Source: a phage. Taken from it: a stretch of 64,000 nt of DNA. The position numbers and the translations under genes are program-made. Of this stretch, positions 3,089-36,000 are shown one piece after another. The stretch's first letter is position 1. Every line of letters starts with the position of its first letter. The notes beneath the pieces were generated by a model. The model was not told the origin of the DNA. It worked only from the letters and a program-made list of their open reading frames with translations, and did no database searches. The stretch is from the NCBI GenBank assembly GCA_019385495.1, contig GCA_019385495.1_4102.1. The stretch is one strand, 5' to 3'.

Positions 3089-3316
3089 ATGAAAGTAATT
3101 CAAGTTATGGTAGAAAAATACCAAACTGAAGATGGTCGTATTTTTGATTCAGCTAAACAAGCTGAACACCATGAACGTATTATTTCGGGTGCACGTAAAG
3201 CGTGTCCTACATGTAGTGGAACACAACAAGTACCGTCAGAAGATTACCGCAGCTTTTATGCTTGTCCACACTGTGATGGGAAAGGCTATGTAGAAAAACA
3301 AGAGGTATGGAAATGA
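3089..3316 (+). CDS. small zinc-finger protein (DnaJ-type CxxCxG repeats)
   Basis: CPTCSGT and CPHCDGKG motifs. Confidence 0.45.
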   Translation: MKVIQVMVEKYQTEDGRIFDSAKQAEHHERIISGARKACPTCSGTQQVPSEDYRSFYACPHCDGKGYVEKQEVWK

Positions 3317-3726
3317 AATTGTATTGCTTAACTAATATGTACTGTCAAGGTGTCCAAGCTGGTATTCAAGCATTCCATGCTGGTGTTAAACTAATTAAAG
3401 AATATGAAGGTACTGCTTTCAGTACTATTATTGATGAATGGTACTATGAACACGAAACTATTGTAGTACTAAATGCTGGTGGACATGATAAATTAAATTA
3501 TTATTATAACAACCTTAGCAAACAGGGGGAAGTTCCGTTTGCCAAATTCAATGAAGCTGGGTTGAATGATGCTATTACCTGTGTAGCAGTACTGTGTACG
3601 TCTGAAATGATTGAAGACATGGCTGTTATGCGTATGAATCTTCCTGCTGGTGATCAACTAATGCAAGTAAAATATGGTGCATTGTTTGACACACTAAAAG
3701 CAATCAGTACAATGAGGACTATTTGA
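3307..3726 (+). CDS. hypothetical protein
   Basis: ORF. Confidence 0.4.
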   Translation: MEMKLYCLTNMYCQGVQAGIQAFHAGVKLIKEYEGTAFSTIIDEWYYEHETIVVLNAGGHDKLNYYYNNLSKQGEVPFAKFNEAGLNDAITCVAVLCTSEMIEDMAVMRMNLPAGDQLMQVKYGALFDTLKAISTMRTI

Positions 3727-4936: not shown

Positions 4937-6355
4937 ATGAGCATTTTAGCAATTCTTGAAAGCATTAAAAATACTAGCAGTACTCTGGGCAAAAAGGCTA
5001 TTCTTGAACAAAATAAAGATAATGTAACTTTGCAAAAAGTTCTGAAATATACACTCGATCCTAGTATTGTAAGTGGGTATAAAAAGCTACCAGACGCTGA
5101 TAACGTGTATCAACATATGACATTGGATGAAGCTATTGATAAACTAGAATGCATCTATAAGCGTGCATTGACGGGACATACAGGGCGTGATTTCATTGCT
5201 TCAGTACTAGGTAGTGTGAGTCCAGATGATGCTGAAGTTCTTCGTAAGATGCTTACAAAGAACTTAGATTGTGGTATTCAAGAAAAGAACTGCAATGATG
5301 TATTTGGTAAAGGATTTATTAAAGATGAACCATATATGCGTTGTTCTTTGCTTGATAAAAAGACTGTTAAGAACATCAACTTCAAAGGTCATGGTTATGC
5401 TGTCTCCGAGGTCAAGATGGATGGTCAGTACTTAAACCATGTAGTCATTAATGGTGCTCTTACCTCTTCCTCCCGTAATGGTAAACTATATGACTTCTTA
5501 GGTTGTCGTGATGGTGAGATGGCAGGTCTTGCACATCAAATTCAAATGAATGATGAACGTTTTAGTAGTGGTGTCGTCTTTATGGGTGAAGGTCTAGTAC
5601 TTGATAATGACGGTGAAACTATTCTTCCACGAACAACTGGTAATGGTATCATTCAGAAGGCTGGTAAAGATAGTATTAGTCAGAATGAAGCAATGCGTAC
5701 TGTATTTGTACTATGGGATGTTGTTCCGTATGATGCATTCTGTGAAGGTACATGGAATGTAAAACGTAAAGAACGTCGCGAACTTCTTGAATCTGCCATC
5801 AATGTATTGGGTAGTGATTTTGTACGTATGGTGAAATACCGTAAGGTTCAAAACATTAAAGAAGCATTTGAGTACAATAACGAACTCATGGATCAGGGTG
5901 AAGAAGGATCAGTACTGAAATGTGAAGATGGTATCTGGAAATCACATACATCTCCTAAGCAGTTGAAAGTAAAACTAAAAATGCAATTGGATTTGCGTAT
6001 TGTTGGTTTCAACGAAGGTGAAGGTAAGCGTAAAGGTTCACTTGGTTCTTTACAACTTGAAAGTGCATGTGGCACACTGAAGGTAAATGTAGGAACAGGT
6101 ATCCGTGAAAAAGATGCAGAGTGGACATTCAAAACCATTTGGGAACGAATGCAAGAACTAATTGGTAAAGTCGTTACCGTTGAGTGCAATGAGATTGTAA
6201 TCGACAAGCGTACAGGTGAACCATCACTATTTTTACCAGTGTTTATTGAATTTAGATTTGACAAAAACACTTGTGACGATTATACTCGTATCTTAGAAAT
6301 TCGTGATAGTGCTGTTGAGGTGTTCTCTAACAGTATTATTGAAGCACTTAGCTAA
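4937..6355 (+). CDS. ATP-dependent DNA ligase (T4 gp30-like)
   Basis: N-terminus KKAILEQNKDN matches T4 ligase KQAILEKNKDN as recalled; KxDG motif (SEVKMDGQ); EGLVLD; C-terminal LFLPVFIEFRFDK resembles ligase motif VI. Confidence 0.85.
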   Translation: MSILAILESIKNTSSTLGKKAILEQNKDNVTLQKVLKYTLDPSIVSGYKKLPDADNVYQHMTLDEAIDKLECIYKRALTGHTGRDFIASVLGSVSPDDAEVLRKMLTKNLDCGIQEKNCNDVFGKGFIKDEPYMRCSLLDKKTVKNINFKGHGYAVSEVKMDGQYLNHVVINGALTSSSRNGKLYDFLGCRDGEMAGLAHQIQMNDERFSSGVVFMGEGLVLDNDGETILPRTTGNGIIQKAGKDSISQNEAMRTVFVLWDVVPYDAFCEGTWNVKRKERRELLESAINVLGSDFVRMVKYRKVQNIKEAFEYNNELMDQGEEGSVLKCEDGIWKSHTSPKQLKVKLKMQLDLRIVGFNEGEGKRKGSLGSLQLESACGTLKVNVGTGIREKDAEWTFKTIWERMQELIGKVVTVECNEIVIDKRTGEPSLFLPVFIEFRFDKNTCDDYTRILEIRDSAVEVFSNSIIEALS

Positions 6356-6374: not shown

Positions 6375-7166
6375 ATGAAATTTGTTGTAACATCTGACGT
6401 ACACGGTGGAACTGATTACCTCCATCGCGGTGATTACAGTGATGTAGTACTGATCATTGCTGGGGACTTCGATGAAGTTAAACGCAGTCGTTACCGTACT
6501 GGTATCGAATCACTGTGTAAGCAGTTCAAAAATGTAGTACTGGTTCCAGGTAATCACGAATATTATGGTTCAAATATCATCAAAACGCATAAAGTACTAT
6601 CCAATATGCAGGATGAGATTCCTAATTTTATCTTTTTGCAAAACAAATTTGTATGGCTGGATGGAGTACTGCTTGTTGGTAGTACTCTGTGGACAGACTT
6701 CGATAAAGGTAATTCTTTGACGAAGTTTGATGCTCGTCAGAAGATGAACGATTACAAACATATCCGTCATGGAACAACATCAGAGCCTTGGCGTAAGAAA
6801 CTGACACCTGATGATACTGAGTTTATGCATCACAAAGATAAACAATTTATCAAAAATTCTATTGACACAGTTCGCTTTATGCATGATAATGATTTCAAGG
6901 TCATCGTGATTACTCATCACGCACCAAGTTATCAAAGTGTTTCACCAAAATATAAAAATGATTCACTAAATGGTTGTTACTGTTCCGATATGGATCAGTA
7001 CATTGAAGATTTGGGTGCTGATGTTTGGATTCATGGTCATGTTCATAGTAGCTTTGACTACCACATTGGTAAGACACGTATCATTTGTAATCCACGAGGC
7101 TATGAATCGTATAGTGGATCTTGTGAGAATTTTGATTACAATCCTAAATTTGTATTTGAAATTTAA
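6375..7166 (+). CDS. calcineurin-like metallophosphoesterase
   Basis: DVHGG, GDFD, GNHEYY, HHAP, GHVH motifs; RBS GGAGG at 6365; ORF-track start 6303 probably too early. Confidence 0.75.
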   Translation: MKFVVTSDVHGGTDYLHRGDYSDVVLIIAGDFDEVKRSRYRTGIESLCKQFKNVVLVPGNHEYYGSNIIKTHKVLSNMQDEIPNFIFLQNKFVWLDGVLLVGSTLWTDFDKGNSLTKFDARQKMNDYKHIRHGTTSEPWRKKLTPDDTEFMHHKDKQFIKNSIDTVRFMHDNDFKVIVITHHAPSYQSVSPKYKNDSLNGCYCSDMDQYIEDLGADVWIHGHVHSSFDYHIGKTRIICNPRGYESYSGSCENFDYNPKFVFEI

Positions 7167-12084: not shown

Positions 12085-12693
12085 ATGAAAAGACTATGGC
12101 TTGAGGTAGTACAAGCAGTAATGCTTCTGATGTTGATAAATTTTCCAGCCAGTGCTGGTATTGAAAGTAAAAATGTGATAAAGTACAATCCTGAAACACG
12201 TAATGTATATTTCATCTCAGATATTACGGATGGGTCACTAAAGCGTATGATGGAGTTGTATGATAAAGAACACTATGATACCATTACCATCACATCGCCA
12301 GGTGGTGATTTTGATGCTGGGATTAAAATGGCAAACTTCGTTAGAGACAATGGTATAAATTTAATTGTTTCTAGGTATTGCAACTCAGCATGTACTGTGG
12401 TATTCTTCAGTGTAGCTTTTGAAAAGCGATACATGATAAATCGCTCAGTACTGGGTCTTCATAACATTTCGATTAAAAGTAATGTTACTGATGGTGATAA
12501 TTCATTTGTGTCTGTAAGACAGCTATCAACTTTTACCGAAGAAATGGCAACAAAGGTAGGTTTCCTTTTTTCACTATATGCAGCAAATGGAATCCCACCA
12601 GAAGTTCTATTTAGAGTTAGTCGTTCTCGTGGTGAAGATGTTGTAATATTAACAAAACCAGAACTGGTTTTTTACGGTTCAGTCAAACAATAA
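12085..12693 (+). CDS. secreted ClpP/crotonase-fold-like protein
   Basis: Signal-peptide-like N-terminus; ITSPGGDFDAG motif resembling ClpP/SppA. Confidence 0.4.
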   Translation: MKRLWLEVVQAVMLLMLINFPASAGIESKNVIKYNPETRNVYFISDITDGSLKRMMELYDKEHYDTITITSPGGDFDAGIKMANFVRDNGINLIVSRYCNSACTVVFFSVAFEKRYMINRSVLGLHNISIKSNVTDGDNSFVSVRQLSTFTEEMATKVGFLFSLYAANGIPPEVLFRVSRSRGEDVVILTKPELVFYGSVKQ

Positions 12694-12763
12694 AAATAAT
12701 TAAAATAACAGGATGATTATGATGTACTTCCTTTGTTATTAATTATATTGAGATTATATAACT

Positions 12764-13024
12764 ATGACAAACATCCAAAACTTGACATCTATTATTTTTT
12801 ATGCTACTGTAGTAATGTATGCTACAGTTATTTTTCTAACAGTTTTCATTTACAAAGATTATCGTAATGGCTTTATTGATCCAACTACAATGAAGTTCAA
12901 TTCAAAATTCGAAGCAATAATTTATTATGTACTATCAACTTCATACTTGGTGTGCCTAATGTTGTTAGGAGCACTAATTTATATCTTATACACAACATTA
13001 TTTGCAATTGGAGCTATTTTATGA
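12764..13024 (+). CDS. small membrane protein
   Basis: Two hydrophobic helices. Confidence 0.4.
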   Translation: MTNIQNLTSIIFYATVVMYATVIFLTVFIYKDYRNGFIDPTTMKFNSKFEAIIYYVLSTSYLVCLMLLGALIYILYTTLFAIGAIL

Positions 13025-13614
13025 CCTGTATTATTGCACACACTGACGGAGTAAGTTCTTTTATTGCTGGGGATAAGTTAGGAAGCAATGGATTTACAAA
13101 AACTGTTCAAACTGAGCCAAAGGTATTCGAGAAAGAATTTATCAAGTTACATGATGATGGACTAACTAGAACTAAAGAAGTAATGGCATTGGGTTATACT
13201 ACATCATTTCGTATGGGTCAGTTGTTAAATTATAACCTTAATTTACCTGAACAAGATGCTAGTCAAACATTTTCACAATATTTGGTTCTTAAAGTTATTC
13301 CAATCATTCGTCAAATGTTTAAAGAAGAATGGGGTGCACGAGATGCATCACAAGATGTAGGTGGTGGACAATTTATCATTCTCCACAATCATACAATCTA
13401 TGAAGTTCAAGAAGACTTTTCAGTACTACAACCTAAAACAAGAATTACCGCAGTAGGTAGTGGGACATATCATGCAATTGCAGCAATGCAAGCATATATT
13501 GAAGTTGAGAACGAATCTAAAAAACCACTACACGAACGTATCAAATCAATTTTTAAAATTGTTAGTGATAATGTAACAAGCGTAAGCGAAGAGTTTGATG
13601 TTTTAAAATATTAA
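13021..13614 (+). CDS. HslV/proteasome-beta-like Ntn hydrolase
   Basis: MT-CIIAHTDG..IAGDKLGSNG N-terminus (Thr right after Met) and AVGSGTYHAIAAM near C-terminus, resembling HslV; ATGA overlap. Confidence 0.5.
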   Translation: MTCIIAHTDGVSSFIAGDKLGSNGFTKTVQTEPKVFEKEFIKLHDDGLTRTKEVMALGYTTSFRMGQLLNYNLNLPEQDASQTFSQYLVLKVIPIIRQMFKEEWGARDASQDVGGGQFIILHNHTIYEVQEDFSVLQPKTRITAVGSGTYHAIAAMQAYIEVENESKKPLHERIKSIFKIVSDNVTSVSEEFDVLKY

Positions 13615-13641
13615 AAGTACTAATATTATAAGAGAGAATAG

Positions 13642-13836
13642 ATGATGGCATACACAATTTATGAATGGGTTTTGAGTTTTTTTATAGTTTTTTCTATTGT
13701 TGTAATTTATAACAATGCTAAATGCTTATATAGAGACTTGAAATCCAATGGTTATCACAAAGATAATAATTTTATGTATGCCTATCATATTGGAATCATT
13801 CTGTTATTATCAATATATTTAATTGTTTTTTTATAA
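13642..13836 (+). CDS. small membrane protein
   Basis: 64 aa hydrophobic. Confidence 0.35.
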   Translation: MMAYTIYEWVLSFFIVFSIVVIYNNAKCLYRDLKSNGYHKDNNFMYAYHIGIILLLSIYLIVFL

Positions 13837-13845
13837 GGATTGAAT

Positions 13846-14598
13846 ATGATATCAGAAAAATTTATAAGCAATGAAGGTAAAAAGCGATTACTGATTATAT
13901 CAGGTGCAGGACTTTCTGTTGAAAGTGGTATGGAACCTTTTCGATTTGATGATGGTTTGTGGGATACATTTAAAATTAATGATGTATGTAACATTGCTAG
14001 TTTAACTACGAAATATCACGTTGTTCATTCCTTCTATAATACATTACGTGTAAAATTGGGACAATGCGAACCCAATGCAATGCATTATTTTATAAAATCG
14101 TTAGAAGATCAATATGGTGATTGCTTCCTTCATATGACTTCTAACATGGACGATCTTTATACTCGTATTGGTGGTCATGAGCTTAAACTTCATGGAAACT
14201 TGTGCGAAGTTATTGAAAATTATAGTATCAATTCCGATGATTATAATGTTATTAACTGCGGATACGAACCATACATACCAAAACATGATGTTTTTGCTAA
14301 ACCAAATGTAGTAATGATTGGAGAATATCATCGTTATGTTGATGGTATTCGCTTACCAATTTACGAAGAACGAAATAATGTGTTGAAATCTCTTAATGAA
14401 AATGATACAGTTATTGTAATTGGTAGTAGCGATACAGTACTGGTATGGTCGAGATTAGCAGCAGCATTACCATGTTATAGTGTTAATGTTAACATTCGTA
14501 AAAATGATAATGATTTTTTGTTTAATGAAAAAGTTATCAAGCCAGCAACCAAAGCAATACCGCATCTAGAGACTATAATTAAGGAACGTATGAAATGA
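13846..14598 (+). CDS. Sir2-family NAD-dependent deacylase/ADP-ribosyltransferase
   Basis: SGAGLSVESGMEPFR, TSNMDDLYTRIGG..ELKLHG, PNVVMIGE, VIVIGSSDTV sirtuin motifs; canonical CxxC zinc pairs absent. Confidence 0.75.
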   Translation: MISEKFISNEGKKRLLIISGAGLSVESGMEPFRFDDGLWDTFKINDVCNIASLTTKYHVVHSFYNTLRVKLGQCEPNAMHYFIKSLEDQYGDCFLHMTSNMDDLYTRIGGHELKLHGNLCEVIENYSINSDDYNVINCGYEPYIPKHDVFAKPNVVMIGEYHRYVDGIRLPIYEERNNVLKSLNENDTVIVIGSSDTVLVWSRLAAALPCYSVNVNIRKNDNDFLFNEKVIKPATKAIPHLETIIKERMK

Positions 14599-15146
14599 GT
14601 GTTAAAGAAGTTCCCTTTGGTGAATATGGCACACGTGCAAATTTTGTATTTTGTTATTTCTTTGCAAGAAAATGCAACCCTTACAAAAACTATGAGTTGA
14701 ATGATATACCAGAAGTAAATTTAGTATTACTGCAATTACGATGGGATGGTCTTCTTGGTGGATGTGGTGGAACCGTAGAAAGTACTGATATCTCACTAGA
14801 AGATGCGTTGCGTCGTGAAGTTCAAGAAGAAATGGATTACAATATTTTTGTTTCCCATCTTCGACCACTCAAAACTTTTGAAATTTACCCAGGTGCAAAC
14901 AGTCACAGTTTTAGCTATGAAGTAACCTATGACGAGTTGAAACACATTAGAGATGGATACACTAATGCTAAACATGCAAGTGCAGAAGTTGCTGGTGTAA
15001 ATTTATGTCATATTTCTCGTTATTCTAAGGGACAAAATCGAGAAGCGGGATATAATAATCTTATGACACAGAACTTCATCGGTACAGCAAAACAAGAATT
15101 GGAGTATCTGGTTCAAAAAGAAAACTTACTAATTAGTTATCTATAG
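14595..15146 (+). CDS. Nudix-like hydrolase
   Basis: WDGLLGGCGGTVES..ALRREVQEE resembles a Nudix box; ATGA overlap with Sir2 gene. Confidence 0.55.
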   Translation: MSVKEVPFGEYGTRANFVFCYFFARKCNPYKNYELNDIPEVNLVLLQLRWDGLLGGCGGTVESTDISLEDALRREVQEEMDYNIFVSHLRPLKTFEIYPGANSHSFSYEVTYDELKHIRDGYTNAKHASAEVAGVNLCHISRYSKGQNREAGYNNLMTQNFIGTAKQELEYLVQKENLLISYL

Positions 15147-15155
15147 GAGTTTAAC

Positions 15156-15476
15156 ATGTCTTACTCAATGTTTTTGGATGATATTCGTGATGCAAATCTA
15201 TATTATCCAAACCAAGATATGGTGGTATGTCGTGACTTTAAAAGTGCATGTGAATATGTTATTGAAAATGGAATTCCAGCATTTGTATCATTCGACCATG
15301 ACTTGGGTGATGTGAGCGAAGACGAAAAGACTGGATATTCTTTTGCTAAGTTTCTTATTGATTATATGTTTGATAATAATATTAAAGAACCGTTTGAGTA
15401 CTTTGTTCACAGTAGTAATCCTGTTGGTAAAATTAATATTGAAACATACTTAAACAATGGATTTAACTCATTATGA
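15156..15476 (+). CDS. hypothetical protein
   Basis: ORF. Confidence 0.4.
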   Translation: MSYSMFLDDIRDANLYYPNQDMVVCRDFKSACEYVIENGIPAFVSFDHDLGDVSEDEKTGYSFAKFLIDYMFDNNIKEPFEYFVHSSNPVGKINIETYLNNGFNSL

Positions 15477-15775
15477 TTCAAACACACATCAAAAGTCTTA
15501 TTTGTACTGTTCTGTTAGGTGCAGGAGTTCTTTGGTTCGGACAGTATCACGAGAACACTAAGCGTACCAACATTCACTACAATACCGCAGAAGTTGTTAG
15601 TTTAGGACAATGTAGCGAGTCCAAATGTTCATTTATGTATAAAACCCAAAGTGGTGAAGTACGTAATGGACTATCAAGAGAACCAGTTTCAATTGGTCAA
15701 CTTGTTTACCAGGAGTGCTGGGAAGAAAAGGTTCGAGGTTCACGTTGCTATGTTGAATACGAACCAAATATGTAA
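15473..15775 (+). CDS. membrane-anchored hypothetical protein
   Basis: N-terminal TM helix. Confidence 0.4.
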   Translation: MIQTHIKSLICTVLLGAGVLWFGQYHENTKRTNIHYNTAEVVSLGQCSESKCSFMYKTQSGEVRNGLSREPVSIGQLVYQECWEEKVRGSRCYVEYEPNM

Positions 15776-17532: not shown

Positions 17533-17636
17533 TTCATTTGAAGACATATTGTGGAGTTCTTAATAAATACTTTTATAAGAATAATAATACTTTTTATTAA
17601 ATTAAAAAGAACTCCATGTGTTATTTCAGTTTTTCG

Positions 17637-17662
17637 TCCCTGTCTTTTGGCAGGGATTTTTT
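17637..17662 (+). terminator. intrinsic terminator
   Basis: TCCCTG-tcttttgg-CAGGGA followed by TTTTTT. Confidence 0.65.
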
Positions 17663-33331: not shown

Positions 33332-33733
33332 ATGACTACAGTTGATGATATCTATAGCACTATACGCAATATGAGTACAGATAGAAAAGTATTTGGCGAT
33401 AAAGAAAAATCTAAGTGTTATGGTATTGATTCTTTTGATATAATTTCTTATGAGTACAATACAAGTGGAAATAGTTCACTGAATATCGTCTGTCCTCGTG
33501 ACCCAGAAAATAATTTTATGTATGTTGAAATTAATAATGATGGAATGTTTTTTACAAAAGTTTTCAAAGGTGGAATTAATTACGAACCTATTGAATGTAT
33601 GAATGAAGAAACTTTCTTTCAAGAAGATACAATTATCAATTTAGGTTTTAGTTTTGATGATTATAAAACATTAGAACATGACTTTAATCGTTATTATAAT
33701 GGTTTCTTAAAGGAGTTAACAATTTATCTATGA
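33332..33733 (+). CDS. hypothetical protein
   Basis: ORF. Confidence 0.4.
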   Translation: MTTVDDIYSTIRNMSTDRKVFGDKEKSKCYGIDSFDIISYEYNTSGNSSLNIVCPRDPENNFMYVEINNDGMFFTKVFKGGINYEPIECMNEETFFQEDTIINLGFSFDDYKTLEHDFNRYYNGFLKELTIYL

Positions 33734-36000
33734 ATAACCAATATATTGAACAAACAATAGTGAAACACTTGGCTGGGTCACAAGCCTACGGAACCAGTAC
33801 ACCTGAAAGTGATACTGATTATCGTGGTATTTTTCTTGCTAATAAAGAATTTATTCTTACACCCTTCTATAAGGTCAAAGAGGTAGCTGATAAAAGCGAA
33901 GAAGATACTAAATTCTATGAGTTGAATCAGTATTTAAAATTATACACTGAAGCTAACCCTAATATTCTTGAATCACTTTGGGTTGAACCTGAACACATTG
34001 TTGAAAGTACTGAAATTTATGACTATCTTCGTTCATTTAACCAAAAACTTCTTAGTTCCAAGATTGCATTTTCATATACTGGTTATGCATATAATCAGAT
34101 TAAGCGTATGACAAATCATCACGGTTGGATGGATAAAGAGCGTATTGCTGAAAAACGATTAAATGAGATTTTAGAAGAACACCCTGTCGATGAGGTTCTT
34201 GCGTGGATGTATGATTCATTCCCACAGTATCTTGTTGAACGTTTAGATACATCGAACTTACATCCATTTAATGCTAAAAAGATTGATTTTGAAAAATATA
34301 TGCGTGATACATCATTGCAGTTAGTTTCGAAAAATCCATTAAAGCAATATCATTTCGTAAGATTAGTGCATAACTACACTACTGAAAAAATTCTTGATCG
34401 TGATTTCAATTTATTGAATTTTAATAATGGTTATGAACTAATTCATTACGGAGAAAACATTTTTGCGATTGTTAAAAATCCGAATGAAAGTACTATCAAT
34501 GGTGATGGTTCATTGCGTTATTTTTCTAAAGAGCGTAGTACTGAAGAGTTGAAAACTAAACCAGAACTAATTGTCAAATTTAACGAAAAAGAATATCAGG
34601 AAAATAGTGAGAATAGGAAAAGTTATCATAAATGGAAAGAAAATCGTAATGCCAAACGTGCTATTTTAGAATCACAACACGGATACGACTGTTATAGTTT
34701 TGATACTGAATTCTTAACTAAAGATGGTTGGAAATTATTTGACGACATCACTGATAAAGATCTATTAGCGACTTTTGATAAAAATCACAAAATAGAGTAT
34801 CAAAAATACACAGAACGTTTTGATAATTTATACAATGGAAATCTTTACCATTTCACTGGTCATCACCAAGATACGTTAGTGACTGCAAATCACAGAATGT
34901 ATGTTAAGAATTATGCACGTAATCAGCAAAAAGATATGTCAGAATGGCAATTTGTTGAAGCAGCACAATTAAAAGAAACTTATAAAATTTTGAATACATT
35001 ATCTCCAATAACAAAGGAATATAAAGATAAAAAAAGCCCAATTGACTATATGGATATCAAAGTTTATCTTCAACTGATGGGATGGTTTCTTTCAGATGGT
35101 AGTATAAGTTTTAGAGATGGAAAAGTAAAATCATTATACATTTCACAATCAAAAGCCAGTCCTGGTATGCGTTGTGCTTTATCAAAATACAAACAATCTG
35201 GACAAATGATATTTCAGGAATACATTAACGAAAGAAAAGATTACCAATCAAATGATGAATCAAGATTTGTATTTCCACGTGAAGTGGCTGAAGCATTATA
35301 TAATGATTGTGGGCATGGATCATATAATAAAAGAATTCCAAATTGGGCATTTGATTTAACAAAACGAAAAATGGATTTTCTGCTAAAAGGTTTGTTGCAA
35401 GGTGATGGTACAAAACGTAATTTGGTCAATCATGATGACACATATGTATATTATACTGCTAATTCATTATTAGCTGATGATGTTCAAAAACTAGCATTAC
35501 TGTGCGGTTATGAAACATCGAAATGGGGACCATACACAAACGAAACTAATTTTGGTTATATTGAAATGTATCAAGTTCATATCAATATGAAACCTAAATC
35601 AGAAAAAATAAACATGAAACAAAATCTTGAAAAAATTCCAGTAACTAACTACAGAACTGTTTGTTTTTCAGTTCCGAACGGTACACTGGTTACTCGTAGA
35701 AATGGTAAAACTGCATTACATGGAAACTGTAAACATGCTATGCACACAATCCGACTTTTGAATAGTGCAGAAGAAGCATTACAAAGTGGAATTATTCAAG
35801 TTAAACGACCAGATGCACAAATGTTGATGGATATTCGTAATGGTAAATGGAAGTATGAAGAAGTCTTAGAATATTTCGATGATAAAGTACAATACATTCG
35901 TGATGTTCTATATAAGAAATCAGTACTTCCTAAAAAACCAAACATCAAGTTAGCATCAAAAATTATCATTGATATTAGAGAAATGCAATGGTATAAGTAA
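33730..36000 (+). CDS. nucleotidyltransferase-fold protein interrupted by an intein
   Basis: N-terminal GSQAYG..SDTDYRG minimal NTase motif; internal intein-like segment of about 346 aa. Confidence 0.6.
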   Translation: MNNQYIEQTIVKHLAGSQAYGTSTPESDTDYRGIFLANKEFILTPFYKVKEVADKSEEDTKFYELNQYLKLYTEANPNILESLWVEPEHIVESTEIYDYLRSFNQKLLSSKIAFSYTGYAYNQIKRMTNHHGWMDKERIAEKRLNEILEEHPVDEVLAWMYDSFPQYLVERLDTSNLHPFNAKKIDFEKYMRDTSLQLVSKNPLKQYHFVRLVHNYTTEKILDRDFNLLNFNNGYELIHYGENIFAIVKNPNESTINGDGSLRYFSKERSTEELKTKPELIVKFNEKEYQENSENRKSYHKWKENRNAKRAILESQHGYDCYSFDTEFLTKDGWKLFDDITDKDLLATFDKNHKIEYQKYTERFDNLYNGNLYHFTGHHQDTLVTANHRMYVKNYARNQQKDMSEWQFVEAAQLKETYKILNTLSPITKEYKDKKSPIDYMDIKVYLQLMGWFLSDGSISFRDGKVKSLYISQSKASPGMRCALSKYKQSGQMIFQEYINERKDYQSNDESRFVFPREVAEALYNDCGHGSYNKRIPNWAFDLTKRKMDFLLKGLLQGDGTKRNLVNHDDTYVYYTANSLLADDVQKLALLCGYETSKWGPYTNETNFGYIEMYQVHINMKPKSEKINMKQNLEKIPVTNYRTVCFSVPNGTLVTRRNGKTALHGNCKHAMHTIRLLNSAEEALQSGIIQVKRPDAQMLMDIRNGKWKYEEVLEYFDDKVQYIRDVLYKKSVLPKKPNIKLASKIIIDIREMQWYK
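34690..35727 (+). mobile_element. intein with LAGLIDADG homing-endonuclease motifs
   Basis: Starts CYSFDTEF (block A-like), VTANHRMYV (block B TxxH), LMGWFLSDGS and LKGLLQGDGT (LAGLIDADG-like), ends ..ALHGN followed by Cys. Confidence 0.55.

Follow-up and report, generated by a model that had tools for sequence, protein, structure and literature searches.

A zinc-less sirtuin and a NUDT16-like hydrolase at the front of a conserved five-gene block in jumbo phages, with a possible role in NAD+-dependent RNA-end processing

To characterise a putative module of nicotinamide adenine dinucleotide (NAD+) metabolism, we analysed a 64,000-nucleotide (nt) stretch of phage DNA, referred to as the window (GenBank assembly GCA_019385495.1, contig GCA_019385495.1_4102.1). 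An original prediction, made from the sequence letters alone, had described a translationally coupled pair consisting of a sirtuin (Sir2) gene and a Nudix hydrolase gene. Both open reading frames (ORFs) lie where they had been placed, and the Sir2 ORF, as read from the ORF list and the sequence letters, extends from an ATG at 13846 to a TGA at 14596–14598. Because the Nudix ATG begins at 14595 and the Sir2 TGA ends at 14598, the two genes have the four bases ATGA in common, in agreement with the predicted overlap. An AGGA motif precedes both starts, 6 nt from the Sir2 ATG and 9 nt from the Nudix ATG. The pair is not free-standing and constitutes the front of a co-oriented block of five genes (Table 1), which is real, ordinary in its gene arrangement, and already known as a prediction. 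The 3 kb surrounding the pair is 100% identical to Salmonella phage SD-2_S15, and its identity with numerous Escherichia jumbo phages in the PBECO4/121Q group (genus Asteriusvirus; 320–380 kb) is 99.2–99.8%. Several of these records already name the second gene 'nudix hydrolase' and the first, variously, 'putative Sir2-like protein', 'cobB', or 'Sir2 (NAD-dependent deacetylase)'.

Table 1. Genes of the Sir2–Nudix block and the hairpin that follows it
Feature	Position	Strand	Evidence
Sir2: zinc-less class-III-like sirtuin, 250 aa	13846..14598	+	Pfam SIR2, PHROG 2162
Nudix: NUDT16-like hydrolase, 183 aa	14595..15146	+	Pfam Nudt16-like, NUDIX
cREC (cyclic-phosphate processing receiver) domain protein, 106 aa	15156..15476	+	Pfam cREC (PF20274) 1.5e-22
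Small conserved protein, 100 aa, N-terminal hydrophobic helix and four-invariant-cysteine domain	15473..15775	+	Alignment
PIN-PhoH2-type protein (PIN nuclease domain and PhoH P-loop ATPase), 479 aa	15836..17275	+	Pfam PIN_4 7.3e-20, PhoH 7.4e-44
Terminator-like hairpin with T-run	17636..17657	+	First + strand terminator-like site after 12828

The first protein matches the Pfam SIR2 profile (PF02146) over profile positions 1–178 of 180 (E = 3.6e-20, 73.1 bits against a cut-off of 24) and PHROG 2162 (Sir2) at 2e-77. The family motifs are present, namely the GAGxS...SG NAD-binding motif, the Asn and Asp of TQNxD, and the catalytic His of HG. Alignment of 17 sequences, with identities down to 34%, revealed that the NAD-binding and catalytic residues G20, G22, S27, G28, N100, D102, H116, G117, G159, and E160 are invariant, which upholds the earlier view that the catalytic motifs are intact. 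Also invariant is Y64, the tyrosine of the SIRT5/CobB Y-x-x-R motif, which aligns with CobB Y92 when mapped by hand from the sequence alignment. The arginine of this motif at +3 is not retained in the jumbo-phage group, where L67 aligns with CobB R95 in the same hand mapping; an arginine at +4 (R68) is invariant in the alignment.

The absence of the canonical zinc-binding CxxC pairs, noted in the original prediction for this one protein, proved to be a property of the whole clade. No CxxC, two pairs of which make up the four-cysteine zinc ribbon, was found in the sirtuin. The sole cysteines in the zinc-ribbon region, C121 and C139, are not conserved, relatives having K, L, T, V, M, or I at these positions, and all full-length members of the phage sirtuin clade (31/31) lack CxxC and have 0–2 cysteines in the zinc-ribbon segment. 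The best solved relative by sequence is Escherichia coli CobB (E about 3e-22), followed by archaeal Sir2 and SIRT5, and on the basis of these relatives the sirtuin is assigned as class III-like. The AlphaFold model (predicted local distance difference test score 80.7) superposes on CobB-peptide complexes with template modelling (TM) scores of 0.74–0.82 at 27% identity. Comparison with CobB revealed an insertion of ~11 residues after the FGE motif, which is specific to the clade and adjoins the substrate cleft. The sirtuin is not a CobB equivalog: with the NCBIfam models NF001755, NF040867, and NF001753 it scores 93, 85, and 86 bits, where the cut-offs demand 318, 320, and 243. Recent capture from a host CobB was considered and rejected, as the identity is only 27% and the zinc-less clade extends across three phage lineages. 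Assignment to the defence-type NADases was likewise rejected, since none of the PADLOC defence Sir2 models (ThsA, DSR, SIR2-HerA, and the partners of short pAgo) matched the sirtuin at E ≤ 0.01.

Two variants of the sirtuin were observed among its relatives. In the RaK2 lineage (locus L010, 8001–8738), the NAD-binding motif is degraded from GAG to GNG and the PFR of the cofactor loop is changed to PYH or LYD; N100, D102, and H116 are retained and the rest of the block is intact, and the activity of this sirtuin may be altered or lost. In one metagenomic relative (locus L013, 8001–8743), the gene is broken into two ORFs (82 and 155 aa); a frameshift or pseudogene would account for this, as would an error of assembly.

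The second protein matches Pfam Nudt16-like (PF22327; E = 8.1e-19, 68.6 bits against a cut-off of 27), Pfam NUDIX (4.9e-7), and the PHROG nudix family (9.8e-91), so that the profile check proposed with the original prediction places both proteins, at values well past chance expectation, in the expected families. Among 11 relatives, the Nudix-box residues G58, G59, E62, R74, E75, E78, and E79 are invariant, including the glutamates of REx2EE. The best solved relatives are human NUDT16 and Xenopus X29 (E about 1e-12 over ~140 residues), and HMMER alignment indicated that the unusual extended spacing of the Nudix box equals that of both. NUDT16, the closest characterised relative, cleaves the pyrophosphate of ADP-ribose, including ADP-ribose attached to proteins (PMC8883491). 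An earlier locus search with a narrow Nudix alignment had returned 2 loci only, the peptide patterns derived from it being too specific, and it was replaced by a HMMER search. The family is small, as the profile search of 1.84 billion representative proteins retrieved only 472 relatives at E ≤ 1e-3. Its multi-domain members include fusions with cREC, Ham1/ITPase, and HD_4. The Ham1/ITPase and HD_4 fusions (proteins P0207, P0209, and P0258 of the representative library) hint that parts of the NUDT16-like family serve in nucleotide-pool cleaning or alarmone metabolism.

The three remaining genes follow closely. The cREC gene starts nine bases past the Nudix stop, and its product belongs to PF20274 by profile match, receiver-like fold, and conserved acidic active-site residues; a sequence search of the PDB with cREC gave no meaningful match. 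Its stop is overlapped by the start of the small membrane protein, which carries the invariant pattern GQC...C...Q.CW...CY and lies between cREC and PIN-PhoH2 in 16 related loci. Pfam searches returned no family for this small protein, for a 122-aa gene inserted between Sir2 and Nudix in some relatives, or for most of the flanking ORFs. The PIN-PhoH2 gene begins sixty bases further on, and its nearest NCBIfam model is 'RNA 5'-3' helicase PhoH2' (2.4e-44, under the equivalog cut-off). Gaps within the block are at most 68 nt, and no terminator-like site is present on the + strand between 12828 and 17636; we infer that the block is co-transcribed, with the hairpin downstream of PIN-PhoH2 as a possible end of the transcription unit. 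Scanning this AT-rich DNA for promoters gave 42 sites, where 35.4 ± 5.3 are expected, and so was not informative. PADLOC gave no meaningful defence-model match for any protein of the block.

To examine the conservation of the block, we collected 30 viral loci with a sirtuin relative together with three metagenomic ones and clustered their ORFs. The order Sir2, an optional gene, Nudix, cREC, small protein, and PIN-PhoH2 is kept in 18 of 19 loci from RaK2-like and Asteriusvirus jumbo phages, over Sir2 identities from 41% to 100%; in the 19th, the contig stops at Sir2. These phages include 121Q, RaK2, GAP32, CBB, Yersinia phage fHe-Yen9-04, and Serratia phage BF. Sir2 and Nudix are adjacent or one inserted gene apart in every jumbo-phage locus that extends beyond Sir2, and PIN-PhoH2 occupies the same position in all 18 related loci that reach that far (18/18). 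In about ten of the loci, including those of the Serratia phage BF type, Nudix and cREC form a single polypeptide of ~300 aa. The overlap of Sir2 and Nudix is neither distinctive nor conserved: of the 98 pairs of neighbouring genes on one strand in the window, 13 have a 4-nt overlap and 32 an overlap of any length, and in relatives the spacing ranges from about -1 to +17 nt or is filled by the 122-aa gene. Given the conserved adjacency and the cleavage of ADP-ribose pyrophosphate by NUDT16 (PMC8883491), it is reasonable to suppose that the Nudix protein handles an ADP-ribose-type product made by the sirtuin, as the original prediction implied; the unit, however, is five genes long and the overlap is of an ordinary kind.

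Comparison of the upstream regions revealed further genes related to NAD+ and signalling. A 148-aa protein of the Acb1 family, 2H phosphoesterases directed against the cyclic-oligonucleotide-based antiphage signalling system (anti-CBASS; Pfam 1.4e-15), lies directly upstream of the sirtuin in 15 of the 19 loci. Nampt is encoded a few kb upstream of the block in 9 loci, and an NMNAT-Nudix protein stands beside Nampt in 6 of those. Since Acb1, Nampt, and NMNAT-Nudix lie close to the block in relatives, this locus appears to collect NAD- and signal-related genes. None of the three, Acb1-type 2H, Nampt, or NMNAT, was found in the window by tblastn (2H at E ≤ 1e-3), so the NARP2 NAD+ reconstitution pathway, which consists of Nampt and NMNAT(-Nudix), is missing there; within the phage collection, the top 40 Nampt matches include no Asteriusvirus record. 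The stretch from the conserved 'protease' gene (12085–12693) to Sir2, 12085–13846, is variable. In relatives (loci L006, 110–6000, and L005, 917–6000) it contains NMNAT-Nudix, Nampt, an HNH endonuclease, and the Acb1-family 2H protein, and in the window phage it contains only an HslV-like peptidase and small membrane ORFs.

The same sirtuin clade occurs in a second context. In rV5-like phages (~145 kb), the gene order is T4-Rnl1-type RNA ligase, cREC, P-loop kinase, a small gene, Sir2, and ATP-dependent ligase, with a MazG-type pyrophosphatase nearby after the ATP-dependent ligase. The combination of sirtuin, cREC, and pyrophosphatase is thus found in two lineages, in one of them with RNA-sealing enzymes. 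In the rV5-like phages (loci L026, L028, L030, and L031), the start of the ATP-dependent ligase overlaps the Sir2 stop; to the eye, the N-terminal ~90 residues of this ligase look WGR-like. A separate WGR-domain protein (Pfam 1.1e-10; locus L001, 14453–15424) is encoded in PBECO4, 4.5 kb past PhoH2, and is absent from the window.

The cREC domain itself is widespread, being present in at least 513 viral stretches. Analysis of the genes within 6 kb of cREC in 67 viral loci outside the jumbo group identified an RNA ligase in 16, a polynucleotide kinase (PNK)-type kinase in 12, a HAD_PNKP phosphatase in 5, and a CCA-adding enzyme in 3, with at least one of these RNA-repair genes in 24/67. The sirtuin was found in none of the 67 loci. 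Calcineurin-like phosphoesterases also adjoin cREC in unrelated phages (13/67 loci).

These observations suggest that the block may process damaged or cleaved RNA ends with the use of NAD+, a tentative reading whose chances we put somewhat below even. In a more specific form, which we consider possible and hold a little more loosely, the zinc-less sirtuin would act on RNA and not on protein, ADP-ribosylating and removing a phosphate at an RNA end or junction in the manner of KptA/Tpt1 but with a different fold; cREC would represent a new metal-independent cyclic phosphodiesterase built on a receiver scaffold, and the Nudix protein would dispose of ADP-ribose cyclic phosphate. The pathway would begin with RNA that has been cut by a metal-independent nuclease and bears a 2',3'-cyclic phosphate, which cREC would open. 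The sirtuin would then move ADP-ribose from NAD+ onto a remaining RNA phosphate, for example a 2'-phosphate, yielding nicotinamide and ADP-ribose 1'',2''-cyclic phosphate, as is the case with KptA/Tpt1 of unrelated fold. The by-product would be split into AMP and phosphoribose products by cREC and Nudix, one polypeptide in some relatives, and the RNA substrate would be unwound or trimmed by PIN-PhoH2. We infer all four steps from protein families, intact active-site residues, gene order, and neighbourhoods.

RNA-end processing accounts for the largest share of the evidence, because it accommodates two independent contexts, the linkage of cREC by itself to RNA ligases and kinases, the presence of PIN-PhoH2, and the fusion of Nudix to cREC. 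From our own context analysis, a role at RNA ends is supported for cREC and, in a less direct way, for the sirtuin. The last gene of the block, which combines a predicted RNase-type PIN domain with a PhoH2 RNA-helicase-type ATPase, may be counted on the same side. So may the other RNA-maintenance genes of the window (RlaP, a CCA-adding enzyme, and a PTH2-like hydrolase) and the T4-type Pnkp and Rnl1 encoded just ahead of it in the identical phage record. A substrate that contains a pyrophosphate as well as a cyclic phosphate, for instance ADP-ribose 1'',2''-cyclic phosphate, would explain why Nudix and cREC are fused. The one route to this compound given in the review consulted is the NAD+-dependent removal of 2'-phosphates by Tpt1/KptA-type enzymes (PMC8883491). 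The same prediction of an RNA 2'-phosphate-removing sirtuin has been published independently (section 3.7.3 of Viruses 14:1977, PMC9503650).

Several points weigh against RNA-end processing by the block. We know of no sirtuin shown to act on RNA, and our literature search found no experiments on the phage sirtuin clade, cREC, or phage NUDT16-like proteins. Healing and sealing of the T4 type are already fully provided for in this phage by Pnkp, HAD phosphatase included, and Rnl1, and to our knowledge this pair leaves no 2'-phosphate for removal. The 2H protein beside Sir2 in relatives belongs to the Acb1 anti-CBASS family, and not to a known family of RNA cyclic phosphodiesterases. The fold matches CobB-peptide complexes, the acyl-pocket residues are still hydrophobic (C48, Y64, M101, and V155, hand-mapped from the CobB alignment), and in the model the sirtuin looks like an orthodox CobB-type deacylase except for the lost zinc site. 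The fusions of NUDT16-like domains to Ham1/ITPase and HD_4 elsewhere suggest nucleotide-pool cleaning. Because the 19 jumbo-phage loci represent one viral lineage, their shared gene order is only weakly independent evidence.

The CobB likeness leads to an alternative that we judge rather unlikely, in which the sirtuin is a CobB-like NAD+-dependent lysine deacylase or protein ADP-ribosyltransferase that resets the acylation of host or phage proteins during takeover, the Nudix protein hydrolyses O-acyl-ADP-ribose or ADP-ribose, and cREC and PIN-PhoH2 have separate jobs. Such a role has been assumed by GenBank annotators and in one phage genome paper. It agrees with the identity of the nearest solved structures in both sequence and fold comparisons, CobB of E. 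coli and SIRT5 in complex with acyl-peptides, with the invariance of every residue required for deacylation chemistry, H116 included, with the nearest NCBIfam models, which are protein deacylases, and with the action of NUDT16 on protein-attached ADP-ribose (PMC8883491). Yet the sirtuin scores far under the CobB equivalog cut-offs, no clade member has kept the CxxC pairs of the zinc module, which gives the peptide-binding small domain its shape, the clade-specific insertion after FGE lies beside the substrate cleft, and the arginine of Y-x-x-R is not retained at +3 in the jumbo-phage group according to the hand mapping of L67 onto CobB R95. The recurrent partners are RNA-end enzymes and not protein-modifying ones, and the Nudix-cREC fusion is unaccounted for.

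The original prediction had also raised NAD signalling and counter-defence. In this reading, immune messengers based on ADP-ribose or cyclic phosphates would be degraded by Nudix and cREC, or these enzymes would remove the ADP-ribose that host NADase defences produce, while the sirtuin would make or convert an ADP-ribose derivative. The support is circumstantial and comes from relatives, where the block lies directly downstream of Acb1 in 15/19 loci and within a few kb of the NARP2 pair of Nampt and NMNAT-Nudix, and from the proposal of Iyer et al. 2021 that cREC is possibly an enzyme processing cyclic ADP-ribose or cyclic nucleotides (PMC7824862). In the window phage, however, the block is retained although Acb1, Nampt, and NMNAT are all missing from the window, Asteriusvirus does not appear among the best Nampt matches, and an NAD+-consuming sirtuin would be an odd tool for a phage guarding its NAD+ supply. 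The wider neighbours of cREC are RNA ligases and kinases, not anti-defence genes, and PADLOC recognised nothing meaningful in the block. Because of cREC, PIN-PhoH2, and the rV5-like neighbourhood with its Rnl1 RNA ligase and P-loop kinase, the context favours RNA-end chemistry over NAD signalling or counter-defence, which we regard as improbable. Still less credit is given to adjacency without a shared pathway, in which Nudix would act alone as a NUDT16-type pool cleaner for inosine diphosphate (IDP) and dIDP or as an RNA 5'-end decapping or de-NADding enzyme, and the overlap with Sir2 would reflect tight gene packing. The commonness of 4-base overlaps (13/98 pairs), the non-conservation of this one, the fusions of NUDT16-like domains to Ham1/ITPase and HD_4, and the nucleotide-metabolism genes of the region (dCMP deaminase, anaerobic ribonucleotide reductase, and DNA ligase) would all fit. 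Against it, the gene order is kept over 41–100% Sir2 identity even with a gene inserted between Sir2 and Nudix, the fusion to cREC ties Nudix to the block, and MazG, another pyrophosphatase, accompanies the sirtuin clade and cREC in rV5-like phages. The presence of MazG there suggests that the pathway needs a pyrophosphatase.

The block corresponds to a published neighbourhood. Iyer, Burroughs, Anantharaman, and Aravind (2022) described a type 1 neighbourhood of jumbo-phage sirtuins, with Serratia phage BF as the example, and proposed that the sirtuin removes RNA 2'-phosphates as KptA does, with the opening of cyclic phosphates or the processing of ADP-ribose cyclic phosphate falling to the other enzymes (PMC9503650). 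The cREC domain had been defined in the 2021 jumbo-phage paper of Iyer et al. (PMC7824862). The window block is the orthologue of the published example: a viral-clade sirtuin linked to Nudix, cREC, and a PIN endoRNase, all four in the published order, and the linked 2H phosphoesterase is absent from the window at the tblastn threshold given above. In comparison with Serratia phage BF, Nudix and cREC are separate genes in the window phage and fused in BF, the window locus lacks the Acb1-family 2H gene found upstream of the sirtuin in BF as well as Nampt and NMNAT nearby, and the 4-nt overlap of Sir2 and Nudix occurs only in the lineage of the window phage. Types 2 and 3 of the same authors correspond to rV5-like and T5-like contexts. 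As a sequence finding, the novelty is therefore low, because the genes are annotated in GenBank and the neighbourhood has been predicted (PMC9503650). Our literature search on phage sirtuins, NUDT16-like proteins, and cREC found only these two comparative-genomics papers and unrelated work; a paper on NARP3 (PMC13464706) deals with PnuC and NadR and not with the Sir2-Nudix block, and the only Sir2 mentioned in a Microbiome 2024 paper about NAD+ in jumbo phages is that of host defence.

The sirtuin resembles E. coli CobB and human SIRT5 in its fold, the GAGxS motif, the N/D/H catalytic residues, and the invariant tyrosine (CobB Y92, hand-mapped), and differs in its 27% identity, the loss of the zinc-ribbon cysteines, the ~11-residue insertion, and the sub-cut-off scores. 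KptA/Tpt1 is its proposed functional analogue, which transfers ADP-ribose from NAD+ to an RNA phosphate and releases ADP-ribose 1'',2''-cyclic phosphate; the analogy would follow from gene context alone, namely RNA-repair neighbours as found in KptA-based phage systems (PMC9503650). The phage sirtuin is not a member of the KptA/Tpt1 family, because its fold is the sirtuin/Rossmann fold and not that of the ADP-ribosyltransferases. The Nudix protein shares the Pfam family and box spacing of human NUDT16 and Xenopus X29, which act in U8 small nucleolar RNA decapping, as IDP hydrolase, and as ADP-ribose pyrophosphatase on modified proteins; unlike them, it sits in a sirtuin-cREC block and is at times fused to cREC. 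The T4 Pnkp and Rnl1 pathway of tRNA repair also heals and seals RNA ends and, unlike the block, needs no NAD+, sirtuin, Nudix, or cREC. The window phage encodes both enzymes ~15–18 kb upstream of the block on the same strand; as located in a 100%-identical phage record (L121, 1851–4437), they lie 1.3–3.9 kb before the window start.

Should the RNA-repair model hold, the phage protein would be the first sirtuin to act on a nucleic acid, and the receiver-like cREC domain would gain its first enzymatic role. It would also reveal a second, NAD-dependent route of RNA healing in phages that already possess a T4-type route, with a bearing on how jumbo phages survive RNA-cleaving host defences. The question is directly testable, as the proteins of the block are small and soluble-looking and come from cultured E. 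coli and Salmonella phages.

Elsewhere in the window, an ATP-dependent DNA ligase is encoded at 4937–6355, 7.5 kb upstream of Sir2, with calcineurin-like phosphoesterases nearby at 2045–2803 and 6375–7166. The window contains no tRNA genes. Other RNA-maintenance genes are present, comprising a PTH2-like peptidyl-tRNA hydrolase (3307–3726), a CCA-adding enzyme (52761–53873), and RlaP. The last is part of a 756-aa ORF at 33730–36000 on the + strand, which combines an RNA-repair-pathway nucleotidyltransferase domain (PF10127, 1e-14) with LAGLIDADG_3 (3e-5). Because the counterpart in phage vB_EcoM_E9.1 is only 410 aa long, the RlaP ORF seems to carry a homing-endonuclease or intein-like insertion.

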